Source: a virus
Strand: one strand, 5' to 3'
Virus record (IMG/VR): IMGVR_UViG_3300045988_163836
Length of the DNA: 60,226 nt
Below are positions 20,619 through 59,162 of this stretch, piece after piece. How positions within the stretch are numbered: the first letter of the stretch is position 1; every line of letters starts with the position of its first letter. The translations under genes were made by a program, and so were the position numbers. Under the pieces are notes generated by a model. That model was not told the origin of the DNA. It searched no databases and saw only the letters and a list, made by a program, of their open reading frames with translations.

Positions 20619-20619
20619 G

Positions 20620-27863: not shown

Positions 27864-27995
27864 GTCATCTAATATTCACAACCGCCACGAGGTAGATGAT
27901 GGGTAATGCTAATAGTGGATAAAACGAAAATCGGGCAAAGCAAGTTAAACTCCTTAAAGTTTTTATCAAATATAGTAGAAAAGGAGTTGAATTAA

Positions 27996-28628
27996 ATGCC
28001 TAAAAAATTAACTCAAGAAGAATTTGAGCAAAGAGTTTATGAATGCGTTGGAGATAAATATTCTGTTATAAGCGAATATAATGGAAAATCTAAACCAATA
28101 GATTTAAAGTGTAATATTCATAACATTATATTTCAAGTATCGGCAGAGTGTTTTATGCGAGGTCCAAAAGAAATAAGATGTTCTTGTCCTAAATGTTCAG
28201 AAGAAAAGAAAAATGAAAAATTTTCTATAAATAGAACAGAATTAGAATGTGCTTATTGCGGAAGAAAATTTATTCGTTCAAATTCTAAATTAAATAATTC
28301 AAAAAGTGGAATATATTTTTGTTGTAGAGAACATAAAGATTTGGCTCAAAGAATAGATTTCGGATTAAAAGAAATTCAGCCAAATCATTATGGAAATGCT
28401 GTTGAAAATATTCATAACTATCGTAAAAATGCTTTTCGATATTATTCTCATAAATGTGCAGTCTGTGATTGGAATGAAGATGAAGATATCTTAGAAGTTC
28501 ATCATATTGATGAAAATCGAGATCATAATGAACTATCTAATTTAATTATTCTTTGTCCTATATGTCATAGAAAACTTAGTTCACATAAATATAAATTGAT
28601 TGATAGAGAACAAATTGTTCTTTGTTAA
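27996..28628 (+). CDS. HNH homing endonuclease
   Basis: Motif EVHHIDENRDHNELSNLIILCPICH. N-terminal Cys/His clusters. No in-frame TAG. Free-standing between tRNAs. Confidence 0.7.
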   Translation: MPKKLTQEEFEQRVYECVGDKYSVISEYNGKSKPIDLKCNIHNIIFQVSAECFMRGPKEIRCSCPKCSEEKKNEKFSINRTELECAYCGRKFIRSNSKLNNSKSGIYFCCREHKDLAQRIDFGLKEIQPNHYGNAVENIHNYRKNAFRYYSHKCAVCDWNEDEDILEVHHIDENRDHNELSNLIILCPICHRKLSSHKYKLIDREQIVLC

Positions 28629-28702
28629 TAAATAGTGTGATATATTCCAAACACGTAGGGTGGTAAGCACACGGGTTTTCTAGAAGCCTTCCCTATGAAC
28701 AT

Positions 28703-28778
28703 GGATGCATAGCTCAGTTGGTAGAGCAATTGACTGTTAATCAATGGGTCGGAGGATCATACCCTTCTGCATCCGCCA
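28703..28778 (+). tRNA. tRNA-Asn (GUU)
   Basis: Acceptor GGATGCA/TGCATCC. D-arm GCTC-AGTTGGTA-GAGC. Anticodon arm ATTGA-CTGTTAA-TCAAT. T-arm GGAGG-ATCATAC-CCTTC. G73 and CCA. Confidence 0.7.
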
Positions 28779-28814
28779 CCGCACTTGCGGAAAACATACA
28801 ACTCAACTGGTGCA

Positions 28815-28882
28815 TAGAACTTGATGGAGCGTTCTATTAGTCTGATGCCTGCATTAGATTAAGTTTTATAACCATCATACTT
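28815..28882 (+). repeat. 65-70-nt repeat directly upstream of a tRNA (copy 2)
   Basis: catagaacttgatggagcgttctattagtctgatgcctgcattagattaagttttataaccatcatacttgg. See 27727..27787. Confidence 0.5.
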
Positions 28883-28956
28883 GGGGACATAGTTTATGGT
28901 AGGAAAACGTTGAATTTAATTCAAAGTCGAGGGTGCGATTCCCTCTGGCTCCACCA
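28883..28956 (+). tRNA. tRNA-like gene with an atypical anticodon arm (TTGAA-TTTAA-TTCAA). A 7-nt loop reading gives anticodon UUA, which would read UAA
   Basis: Acceptor GGGGACA/TGGCTCC with one A.G mismatch. D-arm GTTT-ATGGTAGGA-AAAC. T-arm GAGGG-TGCGATT-CCCTC. A73 and CCA. The anticodon hairpin has either a 5-bp stem with a 5-nt loop, or a 4-bp stem with loop ATTTAAT. Confidence 0.35.
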
Positions 28957-29089
28957 TTTATGAAAGACAATACAGCAATTATACATTTGCTTTGGGAGCC
29001 GTGTGTTATAGGTTCGAGTCCTATTGTTTGGTCGAAGACCGAATATAGCGTAATTGGTAGCGCAACGTATAAAATTGTCTTGTTAATAT

Positions 29090-29162
29090 TGCGGGATCGT
29101 CAAGTGGTTAAGACACCAGCCTCATAAACTGGTTATCGTGGGTTCGAATCCCACTCCCGCAA
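29090..29162 (+). tRNA. tRNA-Met or tRNA-Ile2 (CAU)
   Basis: Acceptor TGCGGGA/TCCCGCA. D-arm GTC-AAGTGGTTAA-GAC. Anticodon arm CCAGC-CTCATAA-ACTGG with a C.A pair at 31:39. T-arm GTGGG-TTCGAAT-CCCAC. A73. No CCA. Confidence 0.6.
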
Positions 29163-29289
29163 GAGATACATTAATCAAGCCTCCACGGGGCGTATCTTGG
29201 GTAATGCTAATTGATTAAAAAATTTTTGGTCGCGGAAAATTAATTTTGCAACCAAAATTTCCATAATATTATGGAGGAGATAATAATTA

Positions 29290-29939
29290 TGGCTTATATT
29301 TATTAGATAACAAATAATATTAATGGAAAAATTTATGTTGGTAAAACATTAAAAAATAATATTTAGGAACGTTGGAAAGAACATTTAAGAGATTATAAAA
29401 AATCTAAATATGAAAAACGTCCTTTATATAACGCAATAAATAAATATGGTCCAGAAAATTTTTCTATTAAGGAATTAGAAGAATGTTCTGCTGAAGAAGC
29501 TAGCGAAAAAGAAATTTATTGGATTGAGAAATTAAACTCTTTTAAATATGGATATAATGCTACTAAAGGAGGAGATGGCAAGATAAAATATGACCATCAA
29601 AAAATTTTAGAAGCATTAAGAATAAATCCACGTCCAATTGAAATAGCTAAATTATTTAATTGTAGTTGTGATTTAGTTCAATAGATAGCTAAAGAACACC
29701 AAATTTAGATAATTAATCAAAGTAATGAATAGATGAAAAAAGAAAAATCCAAAAGTATTAGGCAATATAATAAAAATGGAATATTAATTAATACTTTTGA
29801 TTCTGTAGCAGAAGCTGGACAATGGTGTTTTGAAAATAAAAAATGTCTAAATTATAATTCTGGAGTTAGAAGTCATATTGCTGAATGTGCAAATGGAAAA
29901 CGTAAAACAGCATATGGTTATATCTGGAAATATATATGA
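29290..29939 (+). pseudogene. GIY-YIG homing endonuclease, frameshifted (1-nt shorter T-run near 29467-29470)
   Basis: MAYIYQITNNINGKIYVGKT...ERWKEH is the GIY-YIG motif. The paralog at 54788 reads ...GAAAATTTTTCTATT... with 5 T. This copy has 4 T. That splits the protein between the 29290 frame and the frame of ORF 29733..29939, which carries the C-terminal domain. Confidence 0.6.
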
Positions 29940-30066
29940 TTTATATGAAAAGCCCATACAGCAACTTTTAATAGGATAAATAAGAAATTCTGCAAAAATT
30001 TTTTAGAGTTGGTTCAAATCCAGCAAATGATTTTAGGGTTTTGTTAAAATTGTTAAGGAGAAAATA

Positions 30067-30252
30067 ATGAAGTTTAATCCAGGAGACAAGGTCTGGTGCA
30101 AGAGATATGGTAAGGGTAAGTGCCGCAAGGCTGATAATAAGGATAATTTTATGACTTATCTTTTCAGATTTTATGATGGCACTTTAATTTGGATGTCAAA
30201 ATATCAGGCTGAACATTTTGTAAAAGTTCGTTCCACCGAGGCCACGGTGTGA
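30067..30252 (+). CDS. hypothetical small protein
   Basis: RBS aaggagaaaa lies upstream. Confidence 0.4.
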   Translation: MKFNPGDKVWCKRYGKGKCRKADNKDNFMTYLFRFYDGTLIWMSKYQAEHFVKVRSTEATV

Positions 30253-30411
30253 ATATAAAGTCCGGTTATAGGAAATCCTGTCATTAGGCAGCAGGCTACC
30301 GGTAATCCTTTCTTATATATTTAAATATGTAAGGAACAAAAACTATACAATAGATAGAGTTTTTACGCCTTGGCGCAATGCTTGTTTTTTACTATCTATT
30401 TTTTTATATTT

Positions 30412-30498
30412 GGAGTCGTGGGATAATGGTATTCCAATGGATTGCTAATCCATCCTACCTCTTAGGTAGTCCGCGTTCGAGTCGCGGCGATTCCGCCA
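30412..30498 (+). tRNA. tRNA-Ser (GCU)
   Basis: Acceptor GGAGTCG/CGATTCC. Anticodon arm ATGGA-TTGCTAA-TCCAT. Long variable arm CCTACC-TCT-TAGGTAG. T-arm CCGCG-TTCGAGT-CGCGG. G73 and CCA. Confidence 0.75.
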
Positions 30499-30501
30499 TA
30501 T

Positions 30502-30585
30502 GTAGGAGTGCCAGAGTGGTCGATTGGGTTAGTCTCCAAAACTAATTGTAGCTACACATCCAGGGTTCGAATCCCTTGCTCCTAT
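30502..30585 (+). tRNA. class-II tRNA with an apparent CCA anticodon (Trp codon), unusual
   Basis: Anticodon arm TTAGT-CTCCAAA-ACTAA. Long variable arm TGTAG...CTACA. T-loop TTCGAAT. The acceptor and D-stem pairing is ambiguous (GTAGGAG or TAGGAGT). Confidence 0.4.
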
Positions 30586-30991
30586 GCGGTATCATATAGA
30601 GAACCTTTCCGTGGTGATACTATTTAAACTAATCTCTATGAAACTTATTTCCACTTTTTTAAGTTTCTATGGTTAAACCCTGTTGAGGGCAAAGACTACA
30701 GGGTATTCCTTTCCATCCCTCATACATTAAGACTCATTTTCAGCAAACTTTTGCCTGCAAAGGTTCTACATACTTATTTATTACTAATAGATGAAAAAGT
30801 ATAATAAAGAAAATAAAGTATATTTTGAAAAGTTTTTTCTTTTTAGCTAGTTTAGTAAGCTAAATTCCGCGTTTTTATTTTGGCTTTTCAATGAGTCTTG
30901 TTTTTTAAAATAATTGGTATCGCTAAGCTTCATGGTAATTGTGGCGTATTTAAATCATAGATAGTTAAGGGTCTATAGCCAATTATAATAT

Positions 30992-38736: not shown

Positions 38737-39729
38737 ATGGCAAATAATACATTCCAAGGCCGTATGATTTAGAAGCATGATACAAAAGCTAATTGGGATA
38801 AAGCAACTAATTTTGTCCCCTTAAAAGGCGAAATTATTATATATGATGATTTAAAGAAAATAAAAATAGGTGATGGAGCTACTAAAGTAGGAAATCTGGT
38901 TTTTATTAATGACTTAGATACTATAAATGGAAAATATTTACCTCTTGCTGGTGGTACTATGACTGGTAATATTAATATTAATAATAAAACAATTACTAAT
39001 TTAAAAACTCCAACAGCCGATACAGAAGCCGCAAATAAAAAATATGTAGATGACTAGGTTGCCGCTAATGACCATATAGTAAATAGATTTACATTTACTG
39101 CAACAGCAGGTTAGTCTACATTTACTATTCCATTTGATTTTGAAGACAGTAGCGCACTTACTGTTTATTATAATGGTATAATGATGAGGGAGATAGATAA
39201 CTATACAGTATCTAGTAAAGTAATTACACTTGCTGGATTCACAGCCGAAGCTGGTGATTATCTTACTGTAATGGGTATAGAAGGAGCTGCAGCAATTGAT
39301 TTTGGTAAAGAAGCAGAAGATGCAATTAAACAAATACAAGCTATAAAAACTTCATCAATTAATGAAATAAATACTGTGAAAGAAAAGACTCTTAAAGAAA
39401 TTAATGATTTAGTTGCCACATTACCATCGGATACTTCCAATATTATGTTTTTAAATAAAACAAACACAATGGCTGCTGATAGTAAGATTACTATGTATAG
39501 TACTTATACTCCTTCAGCAAACGGAGATGTTGCTACAAAAAAATATGTAGATGATAGTAAACCTTCAATAGTTGGTACAGCTACTACTTTTCCAATCTAT
39601 ATTGGCTCATCTACTCCCGCGTCAGGCACAGCACCTTTATTATGGATTGACACATCTTCATCTGGTACTTTTAAATATCGTACATCTAAAACTGGAACTT
39701 GGACTATCGTACCTGTTGCTTGGAGTTAA
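38737..39729 (+). CDS. tail fiber protein (KIGDGATKVGNL module, LPLAGGTMTGNI motif)
   Basis: RBS aaggagga precedes ATG 38737. There are 3 in-frame TAGs. The C-terminus is ...KYRTSKTGTWTIVPVAWS. Confidence 0.6.
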
Positions 39730-41198: not shown

Positions 41199-43928
41199 TT
41201 GGCAAAACAAACAATTACTTTAACTAATTTATTAACTAATCCAAGTTTTGAAAAGACAGGTTGGACTGCTAATTCAGCTTGCTCAGTTAGTTACGCCACC
41301 TCTCCTAAACATTCCGGCTCTTATAGCTTAAAAGTCACATCTACCTCAAGTTCTGAATCATTAATTGTAACCTCTGACACATATGCTATCAGAAAAAATC
41401 ATATATATTATATAAGTGTTTATTTTTATGAAACTGTTAATGTATGTTCTGAAATGCAATGTTATTGGCCAATAGCAGAACCATTAGTAGGTATTGCTAA
41501 AGTAGATAAAACTAAATTAAATCAATGGCAGCGATTAAGTTGGCATAATGTACGTGCTAACTGGAATGATAATTAGACAGCTCAATTTAGATTTGATTTT
41601 GAAGGCATGGTGGGAAATACAGTAGCATATATTGATGATGCTATGCTTATTGATTTAACTGCTGCATTCGGCACAGGTAATGAACCTACTCAGGAATGGT
41701 GCAATACTAATATTGAATATTTTACTGGTAATAAAACAATTCAATATGAAGCTCCTAATAAATATGATTTAACTGTTACAACTCCTACAAAAATATAGAC
41801 TGGTGATATATTAAATTGTCCTTATAGTGGGTCTATGAAATCAGTAATTCTTCCAAAAGGATAGTATCAATTAGAATGCTGGGGCGCCTAGGGAGGCAAT
41901 GGAACTAATAATACTTCCTAGCCTGGCGGTAAAGGCGGTTATAGTAAAGGAATTATAACTCTAAATAAGAAAACTAATTTATATTTATATACCGGTGGAT
42001 AGGGCCTTAATGGAACTACTTATAATTCAAATGGAGCAACCACTGCTGGAGGATTCAATGGAGGCGGTTCTGCTACCTCAGTTAATAGTCGAGGAAGCGG
42101 TGGCGGCGGCACAGATATTCGCATTGCTGTCGATTCTTTATATGCTAGAGTTTTAGTCGCTGGTGGTGGCAGTGGTTCTAGTGGCTATACTAGTTTGGCT
42201 GGTTTTGCTGGTGGAGGAATATCAGGCAAGACATATAATAATCAAGACTCATCTAGTGGTGGCAGCTGGTATGGTGGTGGTGGTAGCCAAACCTAGGGTG
42301 GTGCAGCAAATACTAGTTATTCTAATTATACTACTGCAGGAAGCTTCGGACAAGGTGGAAATTATAATAGTGGTTCAAACACTTATTATGGCTCAGGAGG
42401 GGGCGGCGGCTGGTATGGCGGCGGTGGTGCTATCGGTGTTGGAGGTGGTGGTTCTGGTTATATGTACACTTCCAGCTCAGCCTCTTATTATCCTTCTGGT
42501 TGTTTATTGAATTCATCTTATTATTTAACTAATGCTACTATATTAGCAGGAAATGCTGCATTTATTTCTCCAACAGGTACAAGTGAAACAGGCCATGCAG
42601 GTAATGGCTATATACGTATTACCGTTATAGAAGCTAGTTCTGGAAATACTTTAGTGAAAACTACTTCGAATAATTGGAAAGAACCAGTACAAATGTTCGT
42701 AAATACTGGAAGTAGTACTACTATTTCTAGTGGATTAGTTGAATTAGAATACATTGAAAGTACCGGTACACAATATATTGACACTGGCATTAAAGCTTCA
42801 AAAAACCTAAAGGTTGAAGCTGATATAGATGTATCTGCTGCGAGTGGATGGGTTATGATACTAGGTGATTATACTAGTGGTTCATATTTTTCTTGGTGGA
42901 GACAAAATACGACTATGTATGCTTATTATGGAAGTAATAATAAAACGCTTGCAGAATTAACTGGGAAAAGAAAATATATTTCAAATAATACTAATAATAT
43001 ATGGAGCATTGACACTAGCAAAATAACTGTTACTCCAAATTCTAGTGATTTCTCAAAGGATGGAAATAATTTATATTTATTTAGTGTAAATAATGGTGGC
43101 AATTATAATAAAGCTTCAATGAAATTATATTCTTGTAAAATATATGATAATGGTACATTAGTTCGTGATTTCATCCCAGCTAGAAGGATATCTGATGGGA
43201 AAGCTGGCTTATGGGATAAAGTTAATCTTAAATTTTATACTGATGAAAATGGTGGCAATTTTACAGCAGGCACAGAAAAATCTGCTATTGCAGCAATAGG
43301 AACACCGATTGAATATATATAGTCTAGTGGCACATAGTATATTGATAGTAATTTTATTCCCAAAGCTACAACTCGCACTATTATGAAAGCTGAACCAATG
43401 TCTTGGAGTACTTGGGGTGCATTTTTTGGCACAAGAAATGCTACTTCTCCTACTGCTTCTCAAGCTTATAATGCTGCAATTCCAGCCGCTACATTATATC
43501 GTAGTGATTATTTTGGTTCATCATTAACTGCTGAAACTCCTACTGTTATGCAAATAACAAATATTGATAAAAATAAAAATATATGTTCATTTAATAATAT
43601 TATGATTACCAATACTTCTAGCACAGTAAATGCTACAACTAATATGTTTTTATTGGCATTAAATGATGTTGGAACCGCTAAATACTTTTTAAGTGCAAAA
43701 TTATATTCTTGTCAAATTTATGATGGAAACACTTTAGTCCGCGATTTTATTCCAGTTAAAACTACAACTAATATTTATGGTCTATGGGATAAAATAAATA
43801 AAGTATTCTATAAAAACGCCGGAACAGGCACCTTCACTGGCGGACCTGCTGTTACCTTGACCGGCTGGCATAAAATAAAAGGTATATGGGCAAAAACTGC
43901 CGCAAACACATGGAGTTAGGCATTATAA
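41199..43928 (+). CDS. giant Gly-rich tail fiber or host-recognition protein (about 909 aa) with a duplicated C-terminal domain and about 13 in-frame TAGs
   Basis: TTG start (MAKQ) follows aaggag. The ORFs at 41199, 41607, 42462 and 43383 are all in frame 0 and are separated only by TAG codons. A Gly-rich region reads GGGSGSSGY...GGGGWYGGGGAIGVGGGGSGY. A C-terminal domain occurs twice: (I)ESTGTQYID...KLYSC(K/Q)IYD(N/G)(G/N)TLVRDFIP...GLWDK. Confidence 0.6.
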
Positions 43929-44097: not shown

Positions 44098-44532
44098 ATG
44101 GCTTCAAAAACTAGTACAAATTTAAATACTCTTTCTATCAATCAAATCCCTACTAGAGCTTTATATAGACAATTAAAAGAGGATAATTAGTTAAATGAAG
44201 AACAATCATTAGTAATTATAGACGATGATTTTGAATAGCGTCTTTATAAAGATGAAGTAAATGTAATGAGCGCCAATGGTAAAATTTAGATGGCGAATAA
44301 CTATGTCCCAATATCTGGTAATGATATAGCTACTAAAAATTATGTGGATAATAGTAATCCAACTATAACTCCTACTGTTGGTTTTACGTCAAACAATTAG
44401 ATTTATATTGGGACTACTGCTCCTTCTTCTTCATCTGCTCTTATTTGGGTAGATATTTCTAGTAATGGAGTATTGAAATATCGTACATCATCAAGCGATT
44501 CATGGAAACCTATCCCAGTTGCTTGGGGCTAA
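44098..44532 (+). CDS. tail fiber-related small protein
   Basis: RBS aagaaggagg lies upstream. There are 5 in-frame TAGs. The C-terminus KYRTSSSDSWKPIPVAWG is paralogous to the end of 38737. Confidence 0.5.
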
Positions 44533-44556: not shown

Positions 44557-44880
44557 ATGAAAATTATAATTAATAATTTAGTTGATAAACCTATTGATAA
44601 TTTAAGTTTTGTTACAGAACGAGCTTACCATCCTGCTTCTGATGATTAGCCAAAAACAATGTTTTTATTAGAAGCAGCTAGAGGAAATGTGCCATCTAAT
44701 TATAATATAAAACAAATGTTAGGATGGCTTATGGAATTAGATAAAATTGAAAATATAAAAGTTTATAATGATAATGAAGAACTAATTTGGGAATATAATA
44801 ATTATAATAAAGTAGATGAAATTTTTATTATGAATGATAATGGAGTCCAAATTAATAATTTAATTATTCATTTTGTTTAA
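44557..44880 (+). CDS. hypothetical protein
   Basis: RBS aaaaggag lies upstream. One in-frame TAG. Confidence 0.45.
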
Positions 44881-44954: not shown

Positions 44955-46958
44955 GTGAATAAAATAAATTAGTATAGAGATGGACCTACTAGAGCATTTT
45001 GGCCTACAGTTTTTGATGGATTTGAATTAGAAATTCATTTAGTAGACCATTGCAACTTACAATGTAATAATTGTAATCATTTTTCTCCTTTGGCTTCTCC
45101 ATTTTTTATTACTTACGAAGATTTTCAAAATTAGCTAAAATTAGTAAAAAAAACTTTGCCTTCTATTAAAGTTTTAATGCTATTAGGGGGAGAACCATTT
45201 TTACATCCTAATTTAATAGAATTATGTTAGATAGCTAGAAATATTCTCCCAGAGATAGAAATAAAGATATTAACTAATGGTATAATTTTAAATAATTATG
45301 ATACAAAAAAATTAAAAAAATTAGAAGAATTAAATATACATATAAGTATTTCTAAATATCCTAATCAAGACTACAAAGATTTTAGCAATAATAAAAATAT
45401 CTCATATTTAAATGATAGATTTTTCTTTGATTAGACATTGGTTGACCCTTTAGGTAAACAAGATAATAAAACTCGTATATATAGTTGTCCAAATAGGATT
45501 CCTTGCTTTACATTAAAAGATTTTAAAATATATTTTTGTCAGTTTGGGGCACACATAAATAATTTTTGTAATTATTTTTTTAAACAAATTCCATTAATAG
45601 AAAATAAAGATTTTATAAAACTAACAGAAAAAACAAATTTACAAGATTTATAGAATTTAAAATTATGTGAAAAAAATATATGTAAATATTGTCGGCCAGG
45701 AGATGTGGTTGATTGGGATCAATCGACTAAAACTTATGATGAATATACTAAAACAGAAAAAGAATTATTCTTAACAAATTATAATGAATATTATAAAAAA
45801 TTTGTTGATTTTTCTAATTTTTAGGATTTTTCAAAAAAGAAATCTTGGAATAACGTTGATTCTTGGTATGCTCCTGATAAAATGAGGACATTTAGAAAGC
45901 GCAACGAAGGAAAAATTGATATTATAATTCCTTTTTATACAATAAATAAAATATATTTTTAGAAATGTTTAGATTCTGTCTTTAAACAAAGTATTATTAA
46001 TGATTGTGTAATCTATTTAATTAGTGATAATTCTCCAGATAAAAAATATGTATATGAATTTTATAAAACTTATAATAATATATACAATATAATATTATTA
46101 GATACTTAGAAAACTAAATCAGGCCCTGCATCAGCTAGGACTCTAGGAATTAATAATAGCTTCAATAAGTATTTTTTCTGTTTAGATAGTGATGATTATT
46201 TTTATGATAATAAGGCTTTAGAAAATTTATATATATATGCTGAAAATAATAATTATGGAATTGTAAATGGATAGACCTATGATAAAAATGAATTTATCCA
46301 TGACGCTCATAGTTATTTATATAATAGAGAATTTTTTATAAAAAATAATTTTTCTTATGGCAAATTTATTTATAATGAAGATAGATTTTTATCATTATAG
46401 ATTTTTGATTTTTATAATGGTGCAATTCCCTTCTTAGAATAGCCTATTTACGTATATAATAGAAATAATGAAAGTATGGGTAAAGATATTAATTTTTTAT
46501 ATATGACAATAAATGAATTAATTGTTTTTACTTATTTTTATAGACAATATTTAACAAATAAAAAATATGAAAATAATCATTTTATTTTCGAACATATTTT
46601 TAATAAAATTATTGTAAATTTATCTATAATAGAAGAAGTAACTGATAAAGACAAAGAATATCTAAAAGATATAAAACAAGAAGAAGCAATTTGTTTAAGT
46701 CTTATTTGTTTAATTTTAATTAATGATAAAATTTTGTTTAATAAGTTATCATTGTTTTATAAAGATTTATTAAATAAAATAAAAAAAGAAGATTTTATTA
46801 AATTAAATAATACTGTATTATTTAATTTAAATAGTCTATTTAATAAAGGAAATCATATACTTGATAATAATAAACTAATTAAACAATTTATTAACAAAGA
46901 GTATATTGATTTTATAAAATACGAGGAGGAAAAATATGGCAATTAGTTCAAACTCTAA
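44955..46958 (+). CDS. radical SAM domain fused to a family-2 glycosyltransferase domain (start uncertain, possibly GTG 44955)
   Basis: HLVDHCNLQCNNCNH contains CxxxCxxC. GGEPFLHP is also present. The C-terminal half carries GT2 features: IIIPFYTIN...ISDNSPD...CLDSDDYF (a DxD motif). The frame is continuous through about 12 TAGs to TAA 46956. No in-frame ATG lies near the 5' end. Confidence 0.55.
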
Positions 46959-47451
46959 AATAAATTGGAGTGATATTTAGACTATTTTTACTAATTTAAA
47001 TACCGCAAGAAAAAAATTTTTCCCTAGTTAGAGTGATTTTCAAGCGACTCCTGGAGGATAGTCAACACAAGCTATGGCTCAATTAGCTCAGAATTTAAAT
47101 AAGTATATAGAATCTTTTTCCAGTAGCAGTTATGTTGGTTCAAGAGCAAATATTAGTGAAAATCCTCCTTCGGCAGGAGATTTAATTAGTCCTATTATTT
47201 TTAATAGATTTACTACTACAATTAGAAGCATAAATGATACTTGCGCTCATGATGCGAGTTATAATGCTAGCCATAGAGGTAGTGGATATAATAGTAGTTG
47301 GGATAGTTCTGATTATGGAGCAGGATGGGATACTTCTTATAATTCTTCTCATGATGGTTCAGGTTATCATTCTTCCTATTGGTCAGGGGTTAATCAAACC
47401 TGGTGTTCATCTCATGGATGCTCTAGTCATTACGGTTCTAGGCACACTTAA
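46936..47451 (+). CDS. Ser/Gly/Tyr/His/Trp-rich small protein, a candidate modified-peptide precursor
   Basis: RBS GAGGAGG precedes ATG 46936. There are 4 in-frame TAGs. The C-terminal 60 aa read HRGSGYNSSWDSSDYGAGWDTSYNSSHDGSGYHSSYWSGVNQTWCSSHGCSSHYGSRHT. It sits between radical SAM genes. Confidence 0.45.
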
Positions 47452-47471
47452 CATTTAAAGGAGAAAAAGGA

Positions 47472-48905
47472 ATGAAATATATATCGGATTTTTCAATAGA
47501 AGAATTATCTATTATTGGAGCTTGTGGATGTAATTTAAATTGTAAATATTGTCATTCAGCTTAGGCTGTAAATGAATATAGTAAATAGTTACAAGAATAG
47601 ACTATAAAGGCTCTTAAAGATGGAAGTTATTTATAGAATATTAAAAATGTTATGAAAAAATTAGAAGTTGATCCATTAAATATCCATAAAATAAGTTTTT
47701 GGGGTCAAGAACCTACATTAGTATTAGAACATTTTACTAAAAATTTAAAAGATTTTTTTGAATTATGTCCCAATATTAATGAATTTTTTACTTCTACTAA
47801 TGGTATGGCTAATACTGATAAAATAATTGATTTTTTAAAAACTTTTGATAATTTAACTAAAAAACATTCATTTATTTGTATTTAGTTTTCTTATGATGGA
47901 GATTATAGTACTGATAATGTAAGAAGAGCTAATTCTAAAGTAGTATATAATAATTTAAAATATTTAATAGAAACTTTAAATACAATTCGTTTTAATAATA
48001 TTACTATTGCTCTTAATACTCATGGAGTTATTAGTAATGAACTCATAAATCATTTTAATAATAATTACAAAGAAATAGAATAGTATTTTATTTAGGCTAA
48101 TGAAAAAATTCAATATTTAACTAATTTAAATCTAAATAAATCTGTTTTTATCAAAAATACTATAAATTTCTCTAGCGAATTACCTATTAATACTTCTAGC
48201 ATTGATGGTATTAATTGGAGTAATTTTATAAAAATTTGTAAATCAATTGGAGAACATTATCCAGAAATTAATAATCCAGATAAAGACTCTATTGAAGGAT
48301 TATTGTGTTTACCTCGAAAAGCAAAAAAATTTTTATTAAAAAATTTGGAATGTTCTAATTTAGATGAAGCTCTTGATAAAGTTTTAGCATTCTCTAATAA
48401 AGAATTAAAGAATTATAATAGAAACTTAACTCCATTCTTATATTGCGGAGAAAAAACAGGAAGCTTAAAACTTTTATATGATGGAACATTAGTAAATTGT
48501 TAGAGTTCTCTTTATGATACTAATCCAGAATATATTAATACTAATGATAAAATTGGGATTATTAAGCAATTTGCCGCAAATCATCATAATTATATAAATC
48601 CATTGAAAGATAAAGATGAAGATATAAAAAATTGTTGTTTTTTATTTGAAACTTTATCTGTATCTAGTTTTTTTTATGTATATAATTAGATTGTTTCTTT
48701 ATTATGTAATTTACGAGAAGTGCATTAGATAAGTCAAAAATTTAATGATGATAAATTTTTAATGAAAGCAGCATTATTATTAGTACCTATACATTCTTGC
48801 TTTTTTAACAGTTTAATCAGTACTGGTTCTTATTTCTTTAGAGATAGTGGATTTTTAAGAAGATATTGTAATGGAATTATTGAAGAAGTTTTGGAGGAAA
48901 AATAA
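47472..48905 (+). CDS. radical SAM enzyme
   Basis: IIGACGCNLNCKYCHS contains CxxxCxxC. The frame is continuous through about 14 TAGs. The TAA stop overlaps the next ATG. Confidence 0.6.
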
Positions 48906-50275
48906 TGATAACAACGTCTATTGATTTCCAATAGGAAGAAAATATTCTATTTTAGAATTTTATTTTTAATCATGAATTAAAAAAGATGGAAAATGAAATA
49001 TTAGAATTAATTATAAGACAAGACTGTAATCAAAAATGTGATTATTGTTATATAACTAATTATGGCAAAGAATTATATCCAGAACATTTTTCTAATTCTT
49101 AGATATTAGATAATTTAAAATTATTATTAGATTATTTTGATAAAAAACAAATAAAACCTTTAGAATGGTCATTATTCGCCGGAGATTTATTTTATGATGG
49201 ATTAATTTTTGAAATACTAGATGTATTTTTTCCGTATTTAAAAAAATGGTATGAATTTGCTTATAAAATAAAAGAAAAAGGTAAACTAGTAATACCTACT
49301 AATGGTAGTTTTATTTCTGATAATGAAAAAGTAATAAAAATAAAAAAATATATCCAAAAGATGAAAGATATAAATGTAGAAATTCATTTTTCATTTTCTA
49401 CTGATGGGCCGTATAGCACTGAATTTAGAGAACATAAAGATTTAAATGATGAATATTTTAATAAATTATTTGAATTTGCTACAGAAAATAATGATGGCTT
49501 CCATCCTATGATTTCTAGCCAAAATGTTGATAAAGCCATTAAAACTTATGATTGGTTTAAAAAGAAATTAAAAGAATACAATTCATGGTAGAAAACTCCT
49601 TATATGTTAGAAGTTCGAAATAATAATTGGACTCAAGAATCTATAGAGAATTATAAAAAATTCTTAAAACATATCTTTGAAGATAGATTGAATGATTGCA
49701 ATAATGATATTAATACTATGGCTTATGCAATGTTTAAAGGGGATGGGGCTAATAATACTCCTACATTTAATGAGCACAATGGAGATCCTATACGATTAAT
49801 GAATTTATCAGATAAAGAAGACAGACATAACCGAATAAGCTGTGCATTGTAGTCTACTGTCCATATAAGGGTTGGAGATTTAGCTATCGTTCCTTGTCAT
49901 CGTACTTGTTATAATCATTTAATTGGTGGACATTTTAAAATAAATGATGAAAAAACAGAGATAATTGATTTAATAAGTGATAATGCCACAGCTTATATAG
50001 GAATGAAATCTTTTAACCCTGTTTATGCTCCAAGATGTTTAGAATGCTGGTGTAGAGATGTCTGTATTAAAGGATGTTTGGGAGCTTAGATAGAAACTTA
50101 TGGTGATTTTTCTATCCCTTGTTTATCAGTTTGTAATTTATTTCAAGAAAAATATAATTATTTATTTAAATTATATTTTGAAACTGGAGTTTTGAAAAGT
50201 GCGAAAGATCAAAAAATATTACCAAAAGTAATAGAAAACATAGCTATAGAATTGGGGTATGATTTAAATGGATAA
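48905..50275 (+). CDS. radical SAM / SPASM-like enzyme
   Basis: RQDCNQKCDYCYI contains CxxxCxxC. The C-terminal Cys cluster reads PCHRTCYNH...PRCLECWCRDVCIKGCLG...IPCLSVC. About 6 in-frame TAGs. Confidence 0.6.
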
Positions 50276-50525
50276 TTTAGATAATATTTTAAAAGAAATT
50301 ACAAATAATATTATAAAAGAAAATAAGGGATATATGGATTTATTATTTGTTATATACAATAATATGGTTACTTTAGAAGAACCAAATCCAGAAGTCAATA
50401 AAAAAATAATTTATACCTTAGCAAATTTATTATAGAATTAGGATTTACGACTAAAAGATTTAAATATAGATTATTCAAAAGAATTAAATAAATTAACAAA
50501 TTAGCTATATTCTATAGGAGAATAA
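50268..50525 (+). CDS. small hypothetical protein (85 aa)
   Basis: ATG overlaps the upstream stop. About 4 in-frame TAGs. Possibly an accessory or second precursor. Confidence 0.35.
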
Positions 50526-50527
50526 AA

Positions 50528-51376
50528 TTGATTAAATTTACCTTACCTGATTTTTACTATTTTCATACTGTAAATGATAAATTTATTAATTTATCAAGAA
50601 GCCATACTAATTGGCTTCTTGATAAAAACATAGTTTTTTCCTATATTAGAGGGACATTCCCTTATAATATTTGGAATGGAGGATTAAATAACATGGTTGG
50701 TGATACTTTATTGTATCCTAATATAGAATTAATAATTAAGCAAAGTAATTTACCTTTGTGGTTAGATTTTTCTAATATTTTATTAGAAAAATCAGATTTC
50801 TATGATGTAATGAGTAATGTAATTTTAAAATTATTACCAAATAATTGCATTTTTGAAATTAGTAATTTAGATTTATTAAATTATATAAATAACAAATTTC
50901 CTAATTTGAAATATGTTATTTCTAAAAATGCTAATATCTTATATCCTCTTACTCCCGATATTATAAATAATTTTCATCAAAATTTAAATCCATTATATAT
51001 AATAATCCCTAACGAGTTTAAAACTTCACAGCAATATTTAAATGAAATTAATAATAAAGAAAATATTATAATTCCAGTTAATAATCTTTGTAATCCAAAA
51101 TGTAAAAATTATTTTCAATGTCCAATAGTAGAAAATAATAATATATTAAATTATACATTTGAACCTACATTTTGTAATTGTAAAAATTCTATAAATAATA
51201 AACAATATATAACGATTAAAGAAATTAAAGATATTTATATCCCTATGGGTATCACTAATTTTTTAATAGATTATTTCTCTAACAATGAAAATGAATACGG
51301 TCTATTTTTAATTAATTATTTTATTAAACCAGAATTTAAAGAATATGCCTTTCAAGAATTATTTATAAGGAGATAA
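50528..51376 (+). CDS. Cys-motif paralog A (unknown function)
   Basis: TTG start 7 nt after GGAG. Contains NIWNGGLNN and the Cys cluster LCNPKCKNYFQCP...FCNCKNS. Paralogous to 51387 and 53695. Confidence 0.5.
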   Translation: MIKFTLPDFYYFHTVNDKFINLSRSHTNWLLDKNIVFSYIRGTFPYNIWNGGLNNMVGDTLLYPNIELIIKQSNLPLWLDFSNILLEKSDFYDVMSNVILKLLPNNCIFEISNLDLLNYINNKFPNLKYVISKNANILYPLTPDIINNFHQNLNPLYIIIPNEFKTSQQYLNEINNKENIIIPVNNLCNPKCKNYFQCPIVENNNILNYTFEPTFCNCKNSINNKQYITIKEIKDIYIPMGITNFLIDYFSNNENEYGLFLINYFIKPEFKEYAFQELFIRR

Positions 51377-51386
51377 AATATAAGTA

Positions 51387-52319
51387 ATGATTAATTTTAA
51401 TTTACCAGGTATGTATGAAACATACCAATTAAATAAATTAACAATTGAACAACTTAATAAATAGCCAGAAATTTTTAATAAAAATATTACAATTCATGCT
51501 TGTTATGGAAATTTCCAATTTTGTTCTTGGGAAGGCGGCAGAACTTTTACTAATTTTAAAACTCATTAGGCTTTAAAGAAAGATATTGAGGAAATTTTTA
51601 ATTTTTATAATTCTTATAATATTGCGGTCAGATTAGTTTTTACAAATTAGTTATTAACTAAAGAAAATTATAATAATCGTTTTGAAAATCTCATTTTAGC
51701 TATTGGAAATAATGGATTGAATGAAATTGTAATTAATAATGAAGGGTTAGAAGAATATATTAGAAATAAATATAATAAGTATAATTTTATTTCTTCAACC
51801 ACTAAAAGAATTACAAATTTAGAACAAAGTTTAAATGAAATTAAGAAAGCTCAATATAAATTTATTTGTTTAGATTATGATTTAAATTCTAATATAGATT
51901 TTTTAAAACAAATTCCTTTAAATTTAAAAAATAAAATTGAATTATTATGTAATGCAATTTGTATTCCTAATTGTCCAAATCGTATTAATCATTATAAAAT
52001 CAATAGTGAATATGCTTTATCTTATGGAAAACCTTATACATTAAATTGTAAAGCAGTTAAAAGTGTTAATAGCCCAGAAGTTATTGCTTATAAGAATACA
52101 GTAACATTAGATAATATTTATAATTTGTATTATCCTCTTGGTATTGAATAGTATAAATTAGAGGGACGTTCTTTAAATTATATTGATAATATATGTACTT
52201 ATGCTCGATATTTATTATTACCAGAATACCAATATGATTTTATTGAACATTGTGTAACAGATATTTTAGGAGTCACTGATGAACGACAAATACTGCTTTG
52301 TAACACTTGCAACAACTGA
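51387..52319 (+). CDS. Cys-motif paralog B
   Basis: FCSWEGGRTF, then ...ELLCNAICIPNCPNRINHY. About 6 in-frame TAGs. Its 3' end overlaps the GT8 gene. Confidence 0.45.
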
Positions 52320-52914
52320 TAAATATATTAAATGTGCTTGTGCCTTATATTTTTCATTAAAAAAAGTTAATAGTAAATATCCATTTTTACTATTAACTAC
52401 TAATAATGTATCAGATATTTATTTTAAAATTTTAAAAAAAAATAATATAAATTATAAAATAATAGAATAGCCAATTTATTTTTGTGGAGATTCTAATTTT
52501 TATAAAGATACCGCTAATAAATTTTTTATTTATACTTTAACTTAGTACAAAAAAATTTGTTTTATAGATGCTGATATTTTAATTGCTGAAAATATTGATA
52601 ATATTTTTGATTATCCAGATGGTAGTTTTTATGAAGTATATGATAACTAGGAATCTAAAGGACGATTAAGTGGCGGAATAGCTATAATAAAGCCAAATAA
52701 AAATTTATATAAATCAATATTATAGTTTTATATAAATTTTCAAACAGATGAAGAAATATTTAATATCTTATATCCTAAATATTATCATTTACCAAAATTT
52801 TATTATAAACATGATACTGACCATTATCCTGATAAATGGGCTTTTCATTTAACAATATTTAAAATAAAAAAATTAATTGAACATACAAAAAATTTAACTA
52901 TACTATTGAGGTAA
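52279..52914 (+). CDS. family-8 glycosyltransferase (glycogenin/LgtC-like)
   Basis: CFVTLATTDKYIKCACALYFSLKK...FIDADILI is the GT8 N-terminus with a DxD motif. There are 4 in-frame TAGs. Confidence 0.55.
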
Positions 52915-52916
52915 CT

Positions 52917-53663
52917 ATGGATTATTTTTTATATGGATTGATCGATGGTTCTTACCAGCATGGAATAAATAATAACACAAGTGATATAGATATTATTGAA
53001 ATCTATTCTTCTTTTATAAATATGGAAAAAGAATTAAAAAAAATTTCAAATTTTGATTTAAATTTAATTCCATAGGAATAGTCTAATAATTTTATGAAAA
53101 AATTTAATATTATAAATTGGAATCCTTCAAGGCGGATTTATACAGGAGAACATTTTATTTATAATTTATTTTATAATAATAACTATAGTTATTATAGATG
53201 GTTATTCCCTTATCATTATTTAAGTGATAATGAATTTACTTTAGAAATAAAAAAAATTAATGAAGATATAGTTAAAGAAAATTTACCAGTCATTTATTCT
53301 CAATTAATTAATGAAAGTAATAGATTATTTTAGACTGGATTACGAGAAAATTATTATAAATTAAAAAATTATTATAAATTAATTTATAAATCTTTTATTG
53401 ATCTAATAATAATAATTGAATATTATAAAACAAAAAGTTATAAACAAAGTTTATAGCTAGGAATGTATAAACCATATATTTTAGATATAAAAAATAATTT
53501 TAATAATTACAGTAATTTTGATTTTATAGTAAAAAGAAATGAACTTTTAAATAAAATTTCAGAAATAAAAAATTTTTATTTAAATGCTCCTACTAACACA
53601 AAATATCAAAATTAGTTAATTCAAAAAATGGAGAATACAAATTATTCAAAATTTTATATTTGA
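52917..53663 (+). CDS. nucleotidyltransferase-fold protein
   Basis: GLIDGSYQHGINNNTSDIDII matches the GS-x(n)-DxD motif. About 6 in-frame TAGs. Confidence 0.5.
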
Positions 53664-53694
53664 TAAAAAGTAAAAAATATTATATAATTTAAAT

Positions 53695-54570
53695 ATGAAA
53701 AAAATAAATTTAAATTGTCCGGGATTTTATACTGGATTTAATATATATAAAACTCTTTTAGAATTACAATAGACAGCTCCAGAATGTTTCAATTTTAATG
53801 TAGCTATAGAGAGTATATTCGATACATTCCCAAATATGATTTGGAATGGAGGAACTGTCAATCAAGGCTATCAACCTTCATTAGAAAAAATAAAAGAAAT
53901 TATTGATTTTTATTATGGAAATAATATAGAAATTGCTTTAACCTTAACAAATCCATTATTAACAAAAGAAGACTTGTATGATAGATATTGTAATAAAATC
54001 GTTTCCTTATGTGAAAATGAAAATAATTCAATTTTAGTTTCTTCCTCTATTTTAGAAGAATATATAAGAAATAAATATCCTAAATTTAAAATTAAAAGAA
54101 GTATAATAGCTTCAAATAAAAATACAGATTATTTGTCTCTTTTAAATAAATATGATAAAATTGTTTTACCTCGAAGACAAATAAAAGATTTTAAGTTTTT
54201 AGAATCAATTCCAATAGAAGTAAGAAATAGATTTGAACTTTTATGCAATGACCCTTGCCCGATTATTTGTCCATATTTATATAAACATTATAATGGATTT
54301 GCTAAAATAACTTTATATGAAGAAGTAACTTCAAAAGATATTTTAAAATGTAAAACATTAAAAAGTGATGATCCTTTAAAGAATTTTCATTATAAGAATG
54401 ATCAAATTACTTATAATGAAATATGTGAAAAATATTTACCATTATTTTATAACAGCTTTAAATTAAGCGGTCGAAATGATGTATTCACTATAATTTTTTC
54501 AATAGTTCCTTTTTTCTTTAAGCAAGAATATCAATTAGAATTAGCACATTATTTATGTTGTATAATTTGA
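53695..54570 (+). CDS. Cys-motif paralog C
   Basis: MIWNGGTVNQGY, then ...ELLCNDPCPIICPYLY. One TAG at 53767 joins the ATG 53695 start to the 53836 ORF. Confidence 0.5.
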
Positions 54571-54635: not shown

Positions 54636-54708
54636 GCCGGCATAGCACAGTTGGTAGTGCAATTGATTTGTAATCAATAGGTCGGGGGTTCGAATCCGTC
54701 TGCCGGCT
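54636..54708 (+). tRNA. tRNA-Thr (UGU)
   Basis: Acceptor GCCGGCA/TGCCGGC. D-arm GCAC-AGTTGGTA-GTGC. Anticodon arm ATTGA-TTTGTAA-TCAAT. T-arm GGGGG-TTCGAAT-CCGTC with one mismatch. No CCA. Confidence 0.6.
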
Positions 54709-54787
54709 CGCTATCATGTGAAAGCCTTCTCGTGGCGATAGTGTTTTAACTAATTTCACAATTATTTATTAAAGGAGTCATTTAGAT

Positions 54788-55423
54788 ATGGCATACATTT
54801 ATTAGATAATAAATAATATTAATGGAAAAATTTATGTTGGTAAAACAGTAAAAAATAATATTTAGGAACGTTGGAAAGAACATCTTAAAGATTATAAAAA
54901 ACCTAGATGTGAAAAACGTCCTTTATATGACGCAATGAATAAATATGGTTCAGAAAATTTTTCTATTAAAGAGTTAGAGGAATGTCCATTAGAAGAACTT
55001 AATGATAAAGAAGTTTATTGGATTGAAAAATTAGGTTCTTTTAAATATGGATATAACGCTACAATTGGCGGAGATGGCAAACAATATATTGACTATGATT
55101 TAGTATGCGAAACATATAAGAATTTACAATGTATTGTAGATACTGCTAAACAATTAAATATTAGTGAAGATTCAGTTTCTAAAATTTTAAAATTATATAA
55201 AATTGATATTATTCCTAATGCTAAAATAGTTCAAAATAAGTATGGGAAAATAATTAATATGTATGATTTAAATGATAATTATTTAAGGACTTTTCCATCA
55301 ACAACTGAAGCAGCTAAATTTATGGTAGAAAATAAATTAACTAATTGTAAAATGACTACTATAAAACAACATATTTCTGAAGTATGCAAATGTAAACGAA
55401 ATACAGCTGCTAAGTTTAAATGA
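54788..55423 (+). CDS. GIY-YIG homing endonuclease (intact copy)
   Basis: MAYIYQIINNINGKIYVGKTVKNNIQERWKEH...YGYNATIGGDG. There are 3 in-frame TAGs. It is 75-80% identical to the frameshifted copy at 29290. Confidence 0.7.
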
Positions 55424-56918: not shown

Positions 56919-56993
56919 ACTGGTGTCGCCAAGCGGTAAGGCACAGGACTTTGACTCCTGTATTCGTTGGTTCAAATCCAGCCACCAGTGCCA
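56919..56993 (+). tRNA. tRNA-Gln (UUG)
   Basis: Acceptor ACTGGTG/CACCAGT. D-arm GCC-AAGCGGTAAG-GC. Anticodon arm CAGGA-CTTTGAC-TCCTG. T-arm GTTGG-TTCAAAT-CCAGC. G73 and CCA. Confidence 0.75.
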
Positions 56994-59087: not shown

Positions 59088-59162
59088 TCCGGCTTTGGGT
59101 AACGGTTAGCTCAGCTGACTCTAAATCAGCAAGTCTCAGTTCGACTCTGAGAGCCGGTGCCA
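59088..59162 (+). tRNA. amber suppressor tRNA (anticodon CUA), Gln-type
   Basis: Acceptor TCCGGCT/AGCCGGT with a 1:72 mismatch. D-arm GGGT-AACGGTTA-GCTC. Anticodon arm GCTGA-CTCTAAA-TCAGC, so anticodon CUA. T-arm CTCAG-TTCGACT-CTGAG. Discriminator G73 and a weak 1:72 pair are GlnRS identity features. CCA is encoded. Confidence 0.7.

Follow-up and report, generated by a model that had tools for sequence, protein, structure and literature searches.

What a phage might build with three radical S-adenosylmethionine (rSAM) enzymes, two glycosyltransferases, and a small protein that ends in a string of short repeats is the question raised by the gene cluster at positions 44955-54570 of IMG/VR record IMGVR_UViG_3300045988_163836, a 60,226-nucleotide stretch of viral DNA referred to here as the window. 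A reading made from the letters alone (the sequence-only reading) had taken the small protein for a precursor peptide that is cross-linked by rSAM enzymes and glycosylated. Comparative evidence favors the core of that proposal. In our best reading, which rests on sequence comparison, the cluster is a phage-borne protein-maturation cassette resembling those of the ribosomally made peptides with post-translational modifications (RiPPs), and the 171-residue product of 46936-47451, hereafter the tail protein, is the probable substrate of the two rSAM enzymes encoded downstream of it, rSAM2 and rSAM3, an assignment to which we give a probability of about 0.6. Two parts of the proposal have to be modified. 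Because the protein has a conserved domain of 105 residues that is predicted to be folded, and because related tails reach ~350 residues, "repeat protein" fits it better than "peptide"; and a recognizable glycosyltransferase is present in just 12 of 44 cassettes.

The tail protein, which like the rest of the cluster is encoded on the + strand, consists of an N-terminal domain (N-domain, residues 1-105), a conserved junction cysteine (Cys103), and a repeat tail (residues 106-171). The C-terminal peptide to which the sequence-only reading drew attention is present, and its aromatic residues lie four apart more often than in shuffled sequences (P=0.0012 for the window tail; P<=0.005 in six of seven tails). 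Family alignments reveal a tail of variable length in which units of four residues, of the form [G/S]-S-[Y/W/H/F]-[D/N/R], follow one another, and Tandem Repeats Finder detected no DNA tandem repeat in the tail-coding region. The N-domain carries the motifs W-S-D-I-x-T-x-F-T-N-L-N-T-A-R-x-K-F, S-Y-V-G-S-R-A-N-I, and N-D-T-C-A-H, in that order. Close relatives are 68-89% identical to the window protein across the N-domain, compared with 32-41% across the tail. A profile search run exhaustively over 1.84 billion representatives returned 144 proteins at E<=1e-3, the family size of ~140 being a count of representatives at 50% identity. Nearly all are 120-240 residues long with the domain at the N terminus, and their tails are built of repeats such as SFNS, SYRS, GFRS, SYDS, NNGFGF, and DFSD. 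Structures were predicted on the near-identical database proteins P0008 and P0001 in place of the window proteins translated with TAG as glutamine. The AlphaFold (AF2) model has helices at residues 11-28, 46-63, and 86-100, mostly with predicted local distance difference test (pLDDT) scores of 81-93, and scores below 50 in the tail, which suggests a three-helix fold followed by a disordered extension. No significant structural neighbor of the tail protein was found.

The family is diverse beyond the window-type subfamily. Long divergent tail proteins (L072-L143, e.g. L117, L118, L121, L131, and L133) end, after the repeats, in a hydrophobic-I-D-I-x-N-[S/A]-x-[S/T] motif that the window-type subfamily does not have. 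A Cys-type member, L142, matches TIGR04117, the CXXX-repeat radical SAM target (E=5.8e-8), at a score of 32.7 relative to a cutoff of 50. In another member, P0233 (L092, 507-1628), a Hint/intein-like domain (CLIPGTLI...VHNA; a weak match to PF14890) directly follows the repeat tail, and its presence hints that in some lineages the tail may undergo cleavage or ligation at its C terminus.

The two enzymes encoded next to the tail protein were predicted by the sequence-only reading to belong to the rSAM superfamily, and both assignments stand. rSAM2 (47472-48905) exceeds the Pfam cutoff for PF04055 (30.9 bits; cutoff 29.5), and its cysteines C43/C47/C50 and C348/C366/C466 are present without exception in 47 sequences; the latter three constitute an auxiliary site that appears twitch-like and not SPASM. 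Its reading frame is open from a GTG at 47403, an AAGGAG lies 8 nucleotides upstream of the ATG at 47472, and ortholog alignments start at residue 32. The ATG at 47472 is probably the true start, and with it rSAM2 does not overlap the tail-protein gene, a correction to the overlapping starts and stops that the sequence-only reading described for the cluster. The best NCBIfam matches of rSAM2 are the peptide maturases CbpB, PapB, and YhhB, all far under their cutoffs. rSAM3 (48905-50275, 456 residues) is recognized by its CX3CX2C motif and a seven-cysteine SPASM pattern: C41/C45/C48, C313, C331, C378, C381, C387, C391, and C410 are invariant in 46 sequences, with the CX2CX5CX3C signature of SPASM domains. 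It is sub-threshold for PF04055 (21.3 versus 29.5 bits) and for TIGR04085 (17.8 versus 27). Searches of single rSAM2 and rSAM3 sequences against PDB sequences were uninformative, and it was the rSAM3 family profile that reached the SPASM domains of CteB (5wgg, E=5.5e-4) and 8vpo. Homologs of rSAM3 fall into more than 187 clusters, in which source names such as "rSAM protein with SPASM domain" or "AslB" are found. Across lineages, the commonest NCBIfam matches of the two enzymes, all weak, are to peptide maturases: PapB, CbpB, YhhB, XyeB, GggB, DynA, and the nif11-like and CXXX-repeat types. Since the rSAM motif begins at residue ~41-43, neither enzyme has an N-terminal RiPP recognition element (RRE) domain of its own.

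The argument that tail protein and enzymes belong together comes chiefly from gene neighborhoods. The gene order of the window recurs, with lineage-specific variation, in four other settings: the contig L001, which is recoded and 200 kb long; two IMG/VR contigs (L006 and L007) of the same phage species; a region resembling a prophage in a standard-code genome of Clostridiales Family XIII (L004); and two NCBI contigs, L145 and the 50.6-kb L144 (GCA_964384115.1). A scan of IMG/VR seeded with rSAM3 yielded 49 loci, nearly all on phage contigs of 80-196 kb. Of 52 scanned loci, 46 have rSAM2 as the direct upstream neighbor of rSAM3, and in ~28 of these a match to the tail-protein hidden Markov model (HMM) in turn directly precedes rSAM2. 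Seven representative loci with no HMM match next to rSAM2 were read by hand. Each encodes, a short way upstream of rSAM2, a protein with an N-domain and a low-complexity repeat tail, which is sometimes present as a tandem pair; six of the loci have it as the immediate upstream neighbor, and L129 has three small open reading frames (ORFs) in between. The junction cysteine is present where readable. A tail-type protein stands directly upstream of the rSAM2-rSAM3 pair in all phage cassettes examined except two or three, and its position and N-domain are conserved wherever the enzymes occur. Dereplication left 44 cassettes: 43 of them have rSAM2, 28 have proteins that we term U32-like, 12 have an rSAM-glycosyltransferase fusion, and nine have a YcaO protein. 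By this distribution, the minimal core consists of the tail protein, rSAM2, and rSAM3. The YcaO proteins (PF02624, 97.6 bits; TIGR00702, 83.4 versus a cutoff of 75.65) occur in several different cassette architectures, and the ten proteins of the window cluster have no YcaO match in Pfam or NCBIfam. To our knowledge, the YcaO family acts only in peptide-backbone or protein chemistry.

L144 contains two complete tandem cassettes (4260-21443), each with the rSAM-glycosyltransferase fusion, a tail protein, rSAM2, rSAM3, a small protein, and a U32-like pair. The two tail proteins differ in their repeats, with FGSNYGYDAAD and WNSGFYG in one and FRATNFTSNYSG in the other. A further rSAM gene, for a protein of 640 residues, lies upstream. 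Several cassettes also encode an accessory protein of ~167-190 residues with a C-terminal, zinc-ribbon-like CxxC...CxxC pattern (L004, 12972-13523; L099, 1102-1650; L144, 7084-7656; L098, 13449-13952). It sits between the fusion and the tail protein or, in L098, downstream of the fusion. It matches no Pfam family, has no counterpart in the window, and could be a substrate-binding partner.

In the window, the tail-protein gene is preceded by that for the fusion, a protein of 667 residues (44955-46958) in which a radical-SAM domain (PF04055, 43.5 bits, residues 30-133; cutoff 29.5) is joined to a family 2 glycosyltransferase (GT2) domain (PF00535, 58.9 bits, residues 323-455; cutoff 23.3). Its C33/C37/C40, C195, C243, and D411-x-D413-D414 are conserved across 11 sequences, and orthologs are found in L001 (52% identity) and L004 (29%). 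The radical-SAM CX3CX2C motif is thus invariant in the fusion, rSAM2, and rSAM3, in 11-47 sequences each. Weak matches of the fused rSAM domain are to MoaA, the sugar-nucleoside enzyme BlsE, and NrdG-like and QueE-like PHROGs. The best solved relative of its GT domain is GalT1/dGT1 (5hea, E=7e-12), an enzyme of the pathway by which Fap1, a serine-rich-repeat adhesin, is glycosylated. A second glycosyltransferase, of the GT8 family (52279-52914, 211 residues), falls just short of the Pfam cutoff (PF01501, 23.6 versus 24.3 bits). A phmmer search nevertheless aligned its residues 5-153 with glycogenin-2 (4ueg, E=5e-11), with FIDAD opposite the FLDAD (DxD) of the latter. Glycogenin glucosylates a Tyr hydroxyl. 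The GT8 protein has no counterpart in L001 or L004, and its distribution suggests that it is an accessory of this phage lineage. The rSAM, GT2, and GT8 assignments of the sequence-only reading thus hold, and catalytic motifs are intact in all enzymes of the cassette. With the candidate substrate conserved alongside the enzymes, neither of the two outcomes named by the sequence-only reading as refuting it was observed. Its nucleotidyltransferase (NTase) is not supported: the 248-residue protein at 52917-53663 has a G-S-x10-D-I-D motif visible by eye, sub-threshold matches to Pol-beta NTase families (PF18765, 14.5 versus 26.9; PF01909, 13.6 versus 21), no PDB match at E<=1, and no counterpart in L001 or L004, and we have dropped the label. 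A small protein of 85 residues (50268-50525) is a conserved member of the cassette. BLAST identified its L001 ortholog (45%), and its L004 counterpart, in the same position, was detected only by an HMM built with that counterpart included; in all three loci it lies between rSAM3 and the first U32-like gene. At the other end, a gene at 44557-44880 encodes a 107-residue protein with a 41%-identical ortholog in the same position in L001, directly upstream of the fusion, and is probably the first gene of the cassette. The protein matches no Pfam or PHROG family, and BLAST found no match in L004. Other cassettes encode proteins of ~105-136 residues near the tail-protein gene, in which no sequence similarity to the 107-residue protein was found.

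The three remaining proteins, U32-A (50528-51376, 282 residues), U32-B (51387-52319, 310 residues), and U32-C (53695-54570, 291 residues), are the paralogs that the sequence-only reading had recognized by a shared Cys motif. They are 26-30% identical in pairwise comparisons, with WxGG and Cys positions in common, and form three distinct orthologous subfamilies, C standing apart from the A/B pair. U32-A, assigned by paralog alignment and by its match to the U32-like family HMM, has orthologs in L001 (13619-14482, 48%) and L004 (17705-18577, 32%). U32-B, always adjacent to A and carrying the motif LLCNAICIPNC, has them in L001 (58%, with a faint PF01136 flag) and L004 (38%). The sequence-only reading could assign the paralogs to no family. 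A fold search now relates them to the TIM barrel of Mk0906 (5d88), which makes them distant, Cys-cluster-bearing relatives of the U32 fold; by sequence, the U32-like profile found nothing in the PDB. U32 proteins such as UbiU/UbiV, TrhP, and RlhA are reported to be O2-independent Fe-S hydroxylases of aromatic or heteroaromatic rings (PMC6747719, PMC10990095, PMC6599085), and in the characterized motif, CX6CX15CX3/4C, four cysteines bind a [4Fe-4S] cluster, UbiU and UbiV forming a heterodimer (PMC6747719). The window paralogs are shorter, with a CX3CX3C pattern (CX3CX5C in subfamily A), a further Cys ~26 residues downstream, and an invariant His198. None matches PF01136 at E<=0.1, and hence none at the gathering score; weak matches occur in nine of 51 relatives (best E=2.9e-4), and there is a faint match to UbiU (E=0.098). 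Canonical U32 membership was therefore rejected and, as the Cys spacing differs and PF01136 is not matched, we regard the family as a distant branch. Its genomic partners, either rSAM and tail-protein genes or sugar operons, are unlike those of any characterized U32 system.

The cassette is expressed, it would seem, late and in an altered genetic code. Reading TAG as a sense codon increases ORF coverage of the + strand from 10,206 to 16,491 residues, and with TAG as glutamine ten co-directional, abutting or overlapping genes fill 44955-54570, in keeping with the packed, TAG-dense cluster of the sequence-only reading. Glutamine is the residue most often opposite window TAGs in standard-code homologs (26%, compared with a background of 2.8%). 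TAG density is 1.8 per 1000 codons among early genes, 8.4 among structural genes, and highest, at 15.5, in the cluster. A suppressor tRNA with a CUA (CTA) anticodon, located by ARAGORN at 59088-59162 (+), allows translation of this TAG-dense region. It shares 47 of 75 positions with the phage tRNA-Gln and is no closer to it than to other phage tRNAs, so its amino acid identity rests on the codon-alignment test. The G+C content is 21.9% in the cluster (enzyme genes), 34% in the tail-protein gene, and 33.0% elsewhere in the window. The AT-rich enzyme genes may reflect horizontal acquisition or a strong compositional drift tied to late, TAG-rich expression.

The location of the cluster between tail-fiber genes and a tRNA is as described from the sequence alone. 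The upstream gene at 38737-39729 matches tail-fiber PHROGs (E=1.4e-12), a 909-residue protein is encoded at 41199-43928 whose L001 homolog has Laminin_G_3 and glycine-rich domains, and tail-fiber genes also precede the cassette in L001, L091, L119, L127, and L135. The downstream edge is formed by tRNA-Thr(UGU) (54636-54709, +; ARAGORN). A SAM synthetase (MetK) gene at 1221-2378 (+), also noticed earlier, has all three Pfam domains (PF00438, PF02772, and PF02773) far above cutoff and is a possible source of SAM for the three rSAM enzymes, although the link to the cassette is inferred.

Some neighboring features deserve mention in their own right. The 144-residue protein at 44098-44532 and the fiber protein at 38737-39729 have near-identical C termini of ~30 residues (LIWVDISSNGVLKYRTSSSDSWKPIPVAWG and LLWIDTSSSGTFKYRTSKTGTWTIVPVAWS, respectively), and that of the smaller protein looks like a duplicated fiber-tip module. 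Directly past tRNA-Thr is a gene for a GIY-YIG homing endonuclease (54788-55423; PHROG 314, E=1e-25), and in L145 a GIY-YIG gene likewise lies a few genes downstream of the cassette. Further tRNA genes of the window are a block of 11 within 24562-30587 and tRNA-Gln(UUG) at 56919-56993, in addition to the suppressor. Three paralogous early proteins of 475-572 residues (8733-10451, 14749-16392, and 18883-20310) have in common the motif S-(I/V)-H-P-L-D-Y...S-(D/E)-N...W-x-S-C and, at the C terminus, a region rich in CxxC, and a homolog is encoded in phage L098 (4357-5808), ~1 kb upstream of the tail-protein gene.

A megablast search of the whole cluster against GenBank phages gave no match, tblastn with rSAM3 against 50,697 deposited phage records found no homolog, and a protein from the early region of the window had one weak, unannotated fragment as its only match. 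The TAG-recoded "phAss-1" gut phages were considered as relatives and rejected, there being no mention of rSAM enzymes or glycosyltransferases in their paper and no homology found. In the literature searched, no paper links U32 proteins with rSAM RiPP systems or describes a phage cassette of this kind.

If the tail protein is the substrate, then a plausible sequence of events can be outlined. The N-domain would act as a recognition handle, much as a leader peptide does, and rSAM2 and rSAM3 would abstract a hydrogen atom at each [S]-[Y/W/H/F]-x-[S/G] unit, placing one intramolecular cross-link in each repeat. By analogy with the triceptides, a cyclophane (aromatic-to-C-beta) or an ether would be likeliest in aromatic tails, and a thioether in those rich in Cys. 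Once cross-linked, the tail would no longer be disordered but would form a rigid chain of small macrocycles. Two activities of this phage, the GT2 domain of the fusion and the glycogenin-like GT8, would then glycosylate Ser and/or Tyr hydroxyls, and tailoring of the sugar or of the attachment site may fall to the fused rSAM domain. The U32-like trio could contribute O2-independent redox tailoring, for which hydroxylation of aromatic side chains is the favored option, with U32-A and U32-B probably forming a heterodimer like UbiU/UbiV. Neither Pfam nor NCBIfam identified a protease or exporter in the window cassette. Since none is encoded, and the cassette is late, TAG-dense, and adjoins tail-fiber genes, the product is probably the full-length modified protein, associated with the virion or tail fiber or released at lysis.

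Of the systems compared, rSAM/SPASM maturation of RiPPs is the one that the cassette would most resemble in operation, and its sequences place it in none of the compared families. [quoted passage not shown] The scores are nonetheless far from the synthase cutoffs (XyeB, 16.4 versus 450; YhhB, 16-24 versus 445; FxsB, 18.2 versus 370). A triceptide precursor has one to three motifs, and not a 105-residue folded N-domain with 8-80 repeats; the cassette always has two rSAM paralogs and lies in a late phage operon with U32-like, glycosyltransferase, or YcaO accessories; and aromatic-X-X motifs, although present in window-type tails, are absent from many related ones. The CXXX-repeat systems (TIGR04114-04117) and the ranthipeptide/SCIFF-PapB group likewise combine substrates of period four with an rSAM/SPASM maturase, and rSAM3 weakly matches TIGR04115 and PapB. 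All of these matches are below cutoff (32.7 versus 50, 16.6 versus 350, and 38 versus 340), and the window repeats are aromatic and Ser-containing, not Cys-containing. In the literature searched, there was no mention of "CXXX repeat".

In mycofactocin biosynthesis (MftA/MftC/MftF), an rSAM/SPASM enzyme acts on a Tyr-containing ribosomal peptide and a GT2 enzyme glycosylates the Tyr-derived phenol, a combination that the window would share. Identity with this system was rejected: the MftC model scores 17.5 against a cutoff of 265, and does so on the rSAM domain of the fusion; equivalents of the defining accessory genes MftB, MftD, and MftE are absent; and mycofactocin arises from a single C-terminal Val-Tyr target, with no repeat tail, as a small redox cofactor. 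The likeness to glycocins suggested by the sequence-only reading extends to a phage-borne GT2 beside a ribosomal product, as in sublancin (SunA/SunS) of prophage SP-beta. It goes no further, as the GT2 domain is a generic one and not of a recognized SunS/ThuS type, the cassette encodes no SunT-type exporter/peptidase and no Bdb or other thiol-disulfide enzyme, the 171-residue substrate has no short leader-core organization and is not a short two-helix, two-disulfide peptide, and glycocin biosynthesis uses no rSAM enzyme. Glycogenin and the enzymes of Fap1/GspB adhesin O-glycosylation are the closest solved relatives of the GT8 protein and the GT2 domain, and the tail is Ser- and Tyr-rich. The homology lies in generic GT-A catalytic domains, from which acceptor specificity is not inferable, and the cassette offers neither the SecA2/Y2 export apparatus nor a self-glucosylating Tyr context.

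Several observations weigh against the tail protein as a cross-linked and tailored substrate. Each step of the chemistry has been deduced from sequence and context; the scores of rSAM2 and rSAM3 are ~16-38 bits where the curated cutoffs of the characterized maturase families are 340-650, and the type of cross-link is not readable from sequence. A conserved domain of 105 residues followed by tails of up to ~350 sets the family apart from classical RiPP precursors. Nor is the aromatic character of the tails uniform: Ser/Asn/Gly/Thr or Cys-rich CxxxC repeats are found in many relatives, and for that reason no single motif or chemistry fits them all. The U32-like proteins pose a particular difficulty, as their Cys pattern is unlike the published CX6CX15CX3/4C, and the family has 347 loci in the representative genomes of GTDB, the majority from Lachnospiraceae. 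Among 78 chromosomal loci (L010-L087), the neighbors include two ATP-binding cassette (ABC) permeases (in 49 and 44), a solute-binding protein (42), DUF5696 (42), and glycoside hydrolase family GH43 (25). In these sugar-uptake operons, U32-like gene pairs have no accompanying rSAM or tail-protein genes, a setting that indicates carbohydrate and not peptide chemistry and that we cannot reconcile with a peptide substrate. Modest support for aromatic hydroxylation comes from the share of Phe, Tyr, and Trp in the tails, which has a median of 14.4% in cassettes with U32-like genes and 7.4% in those without (P=4e-4, uncorrected; P=0.018 on 12 versus nine lineages collapsed by hand), a correlation that is weak and not properly corrected for phylogeny.

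This sugar-operon context, which holds for most of the 78 chromosomal loci, is the natural starting point for a different view, in which the rSAM enzymes, U32-like proteins, and glycosyltransferases serve mainly to build and tailor an unusual sugar or oligosaccharide, carbohydrate is the target of rSAM2 and rSAM3, and the glycan is placed on the tail protein as a mere carrier, on the tail fibers, or on a host surface polymer. Twitch/SPASM enzymes that act on sugars, such as BtrN, are known, and the window has both a GT2 and a glycogenin-like GT8, the fused rSAM domain weakly matches MoaA and BlsE, and a gene of the DAHP/KDO8P-synthase family adjoins the L004 cassette. We consider such a pathway unlikely, because glycosyltransferases are found in so much smaller a fraction of cassettes than the almost universal tail protein and rSAM pair, because YcaO enzymes, the SPASM domain, and the commonest, if weak, NCBIfam matches of rSAM2 and rSAM3 all point to peptides or proteins, and because tandem cassettes each retain a distinct tail protein of their own; nor did Pfam or NCBIfam reveal any gene of sugar-nucleotide biosynthesis in the window cassette. 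It is decidedly unlikely, in our estimation, that tail protein and enzymes are merely neighbors, the former an ordinary low-complexity structural protein or tail-fiber accessory, the latter serving to mature tail-fiber proteins or a target in the host. Proximity to tail-fiber genes in several phage lineages would suit this possibility, as would a well-conserved and apparently folded N-domain, tails of hundreds of residues with a conserved C-terminal h-I-D-I-x-N motif in some relatives, and a window cassette that has no leader protease or exporter. It does not account for the persistence of the order tail protein, rSAM2, rSAM3 down to ~30% enzyme identity and outside tail contexts (L103 and L004), or for the duplication of the tail protein with its enzymes; moreover, repeats rich in aromatic residues, Cys, Ser, or Thr are typical targets of radical-SAM and YcaO enzymes.

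The general logic of the system would also accommodate a true RiPP, a bacteriocin-like or signaling product in the style of glycocins or sactipeptides: a peptidase of the host or of U32 type would separate the tail from the N-domain, and the tail would act on other bacteria after lysis. RiPPs carried by prophages exist, e.g. sublancin on SP-beta, U32 proteins were first described as peptidases, the prophage region around L004 resembles SP-beta and encodes YonJ, and the family member with the Hint/intein-like domain may process itself. Biosynthetic gene clusters borne by phages have also been the subject of a survey (bioRxiv 10.1101/2020.10.01.322628). A released product is, however, very unlikely, given that searches of Pfam and NCBIfam found no double-glycine leader, C39 peptidase/ABC exporter, immunity gene, or thiol-disulfide oxidoreductase, that the carriers are mostly large phage contigs with the cassette in the late structural module, and that repeat tails of 60-350 residues are unlike known bacteriocins. 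Hypermodification of DNA or nucleotides, which the sequence-only reading had raised as an alternative, would assign the rSAM enzymes, glycosyltransferases, NTase, and a U32-type C5-hydroxylase to pyrimidines. Phages are known to glycosylate modified bases, and the fused rSAM domain has its weak matches to NrdG-like and QueE-like PHROGs. The U32 enzymes RlhA and TrhP are reported to hydroxylate C5 of pyrimidines in RNA (PMC6599085). We nevertheless regard this as most improbable: across the ten proteins, Pfam, NCBIfam, and PHROGs gave no deoxynucleoside monophosphate (dNMP) hydroxymethylase or kinase, DNA glycosyltransferase, deazaguanine, or DNA-binding family, nor any other nucleotide- or DNA-directed signature; the NTase has lost its support; the near-universal partner is a repeat protein, and YcaO and SPASM point to peptides; and the cassette genes are late and TAG-dense, whereas genes for DNA modification are typically early. 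A module for glycosylation of tail fibers, the other alternative put forward, is conceivable but would leave the near-universal pairing of tail protein and rSAM enzymes unexplained. Maturation of the tail protein by rSAM2 and rSAM3 accordingly continues to be the reading that we prefer.

The maturation of ribosomal peptides by rSAM/SPASM enzymes is already known in bacteria. What appears not to have been described is a substrate family that combines a folded handle with repeats that are long and hypervariable, the obligatory presence of two rSAM paralogs, accessories that are recruited again and again (U32-like Fe-S proteins, the rSAM-GT2 fusion, the glycogenin-like GT8, or YcaO), and the residence of such a system in a late, tail-fiber-proximal, stop codon-recoded region of many large gut phages. 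As a compact and modular cassette with natural libraries of repeat substrates, it is attractive for enzyme discovery. If the reading given here is right, then the chemistry that is installed, the building or arming of virions by RiPP-type cross-linking and glycosylation, and the role of the widespread U32-like branch all become testable questions. Going further, and tentatively, since we think it possible but doubtful, these cassettes may produce enzymatically hardened repeat proteins of a class not recognized before, each a handle with a hypervariable tail that is closed into macrocycles by the rSAM enzymes, elaborated according to lineage by YcaO chemistry, Ser/Tyr glycosylation, or O2-independent hydroxylation of aromatic side chains through a new branch of U32 Fe-S enzymes, and built into the virion as a tail-fiber component. 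Fast-evolving repeats would then tune host recognition or protect the fiber, and the system would provide both the first example of RiPP-type chemistry building a structural element of a phage and the first protein substrate of a U32-type hydroxylase.

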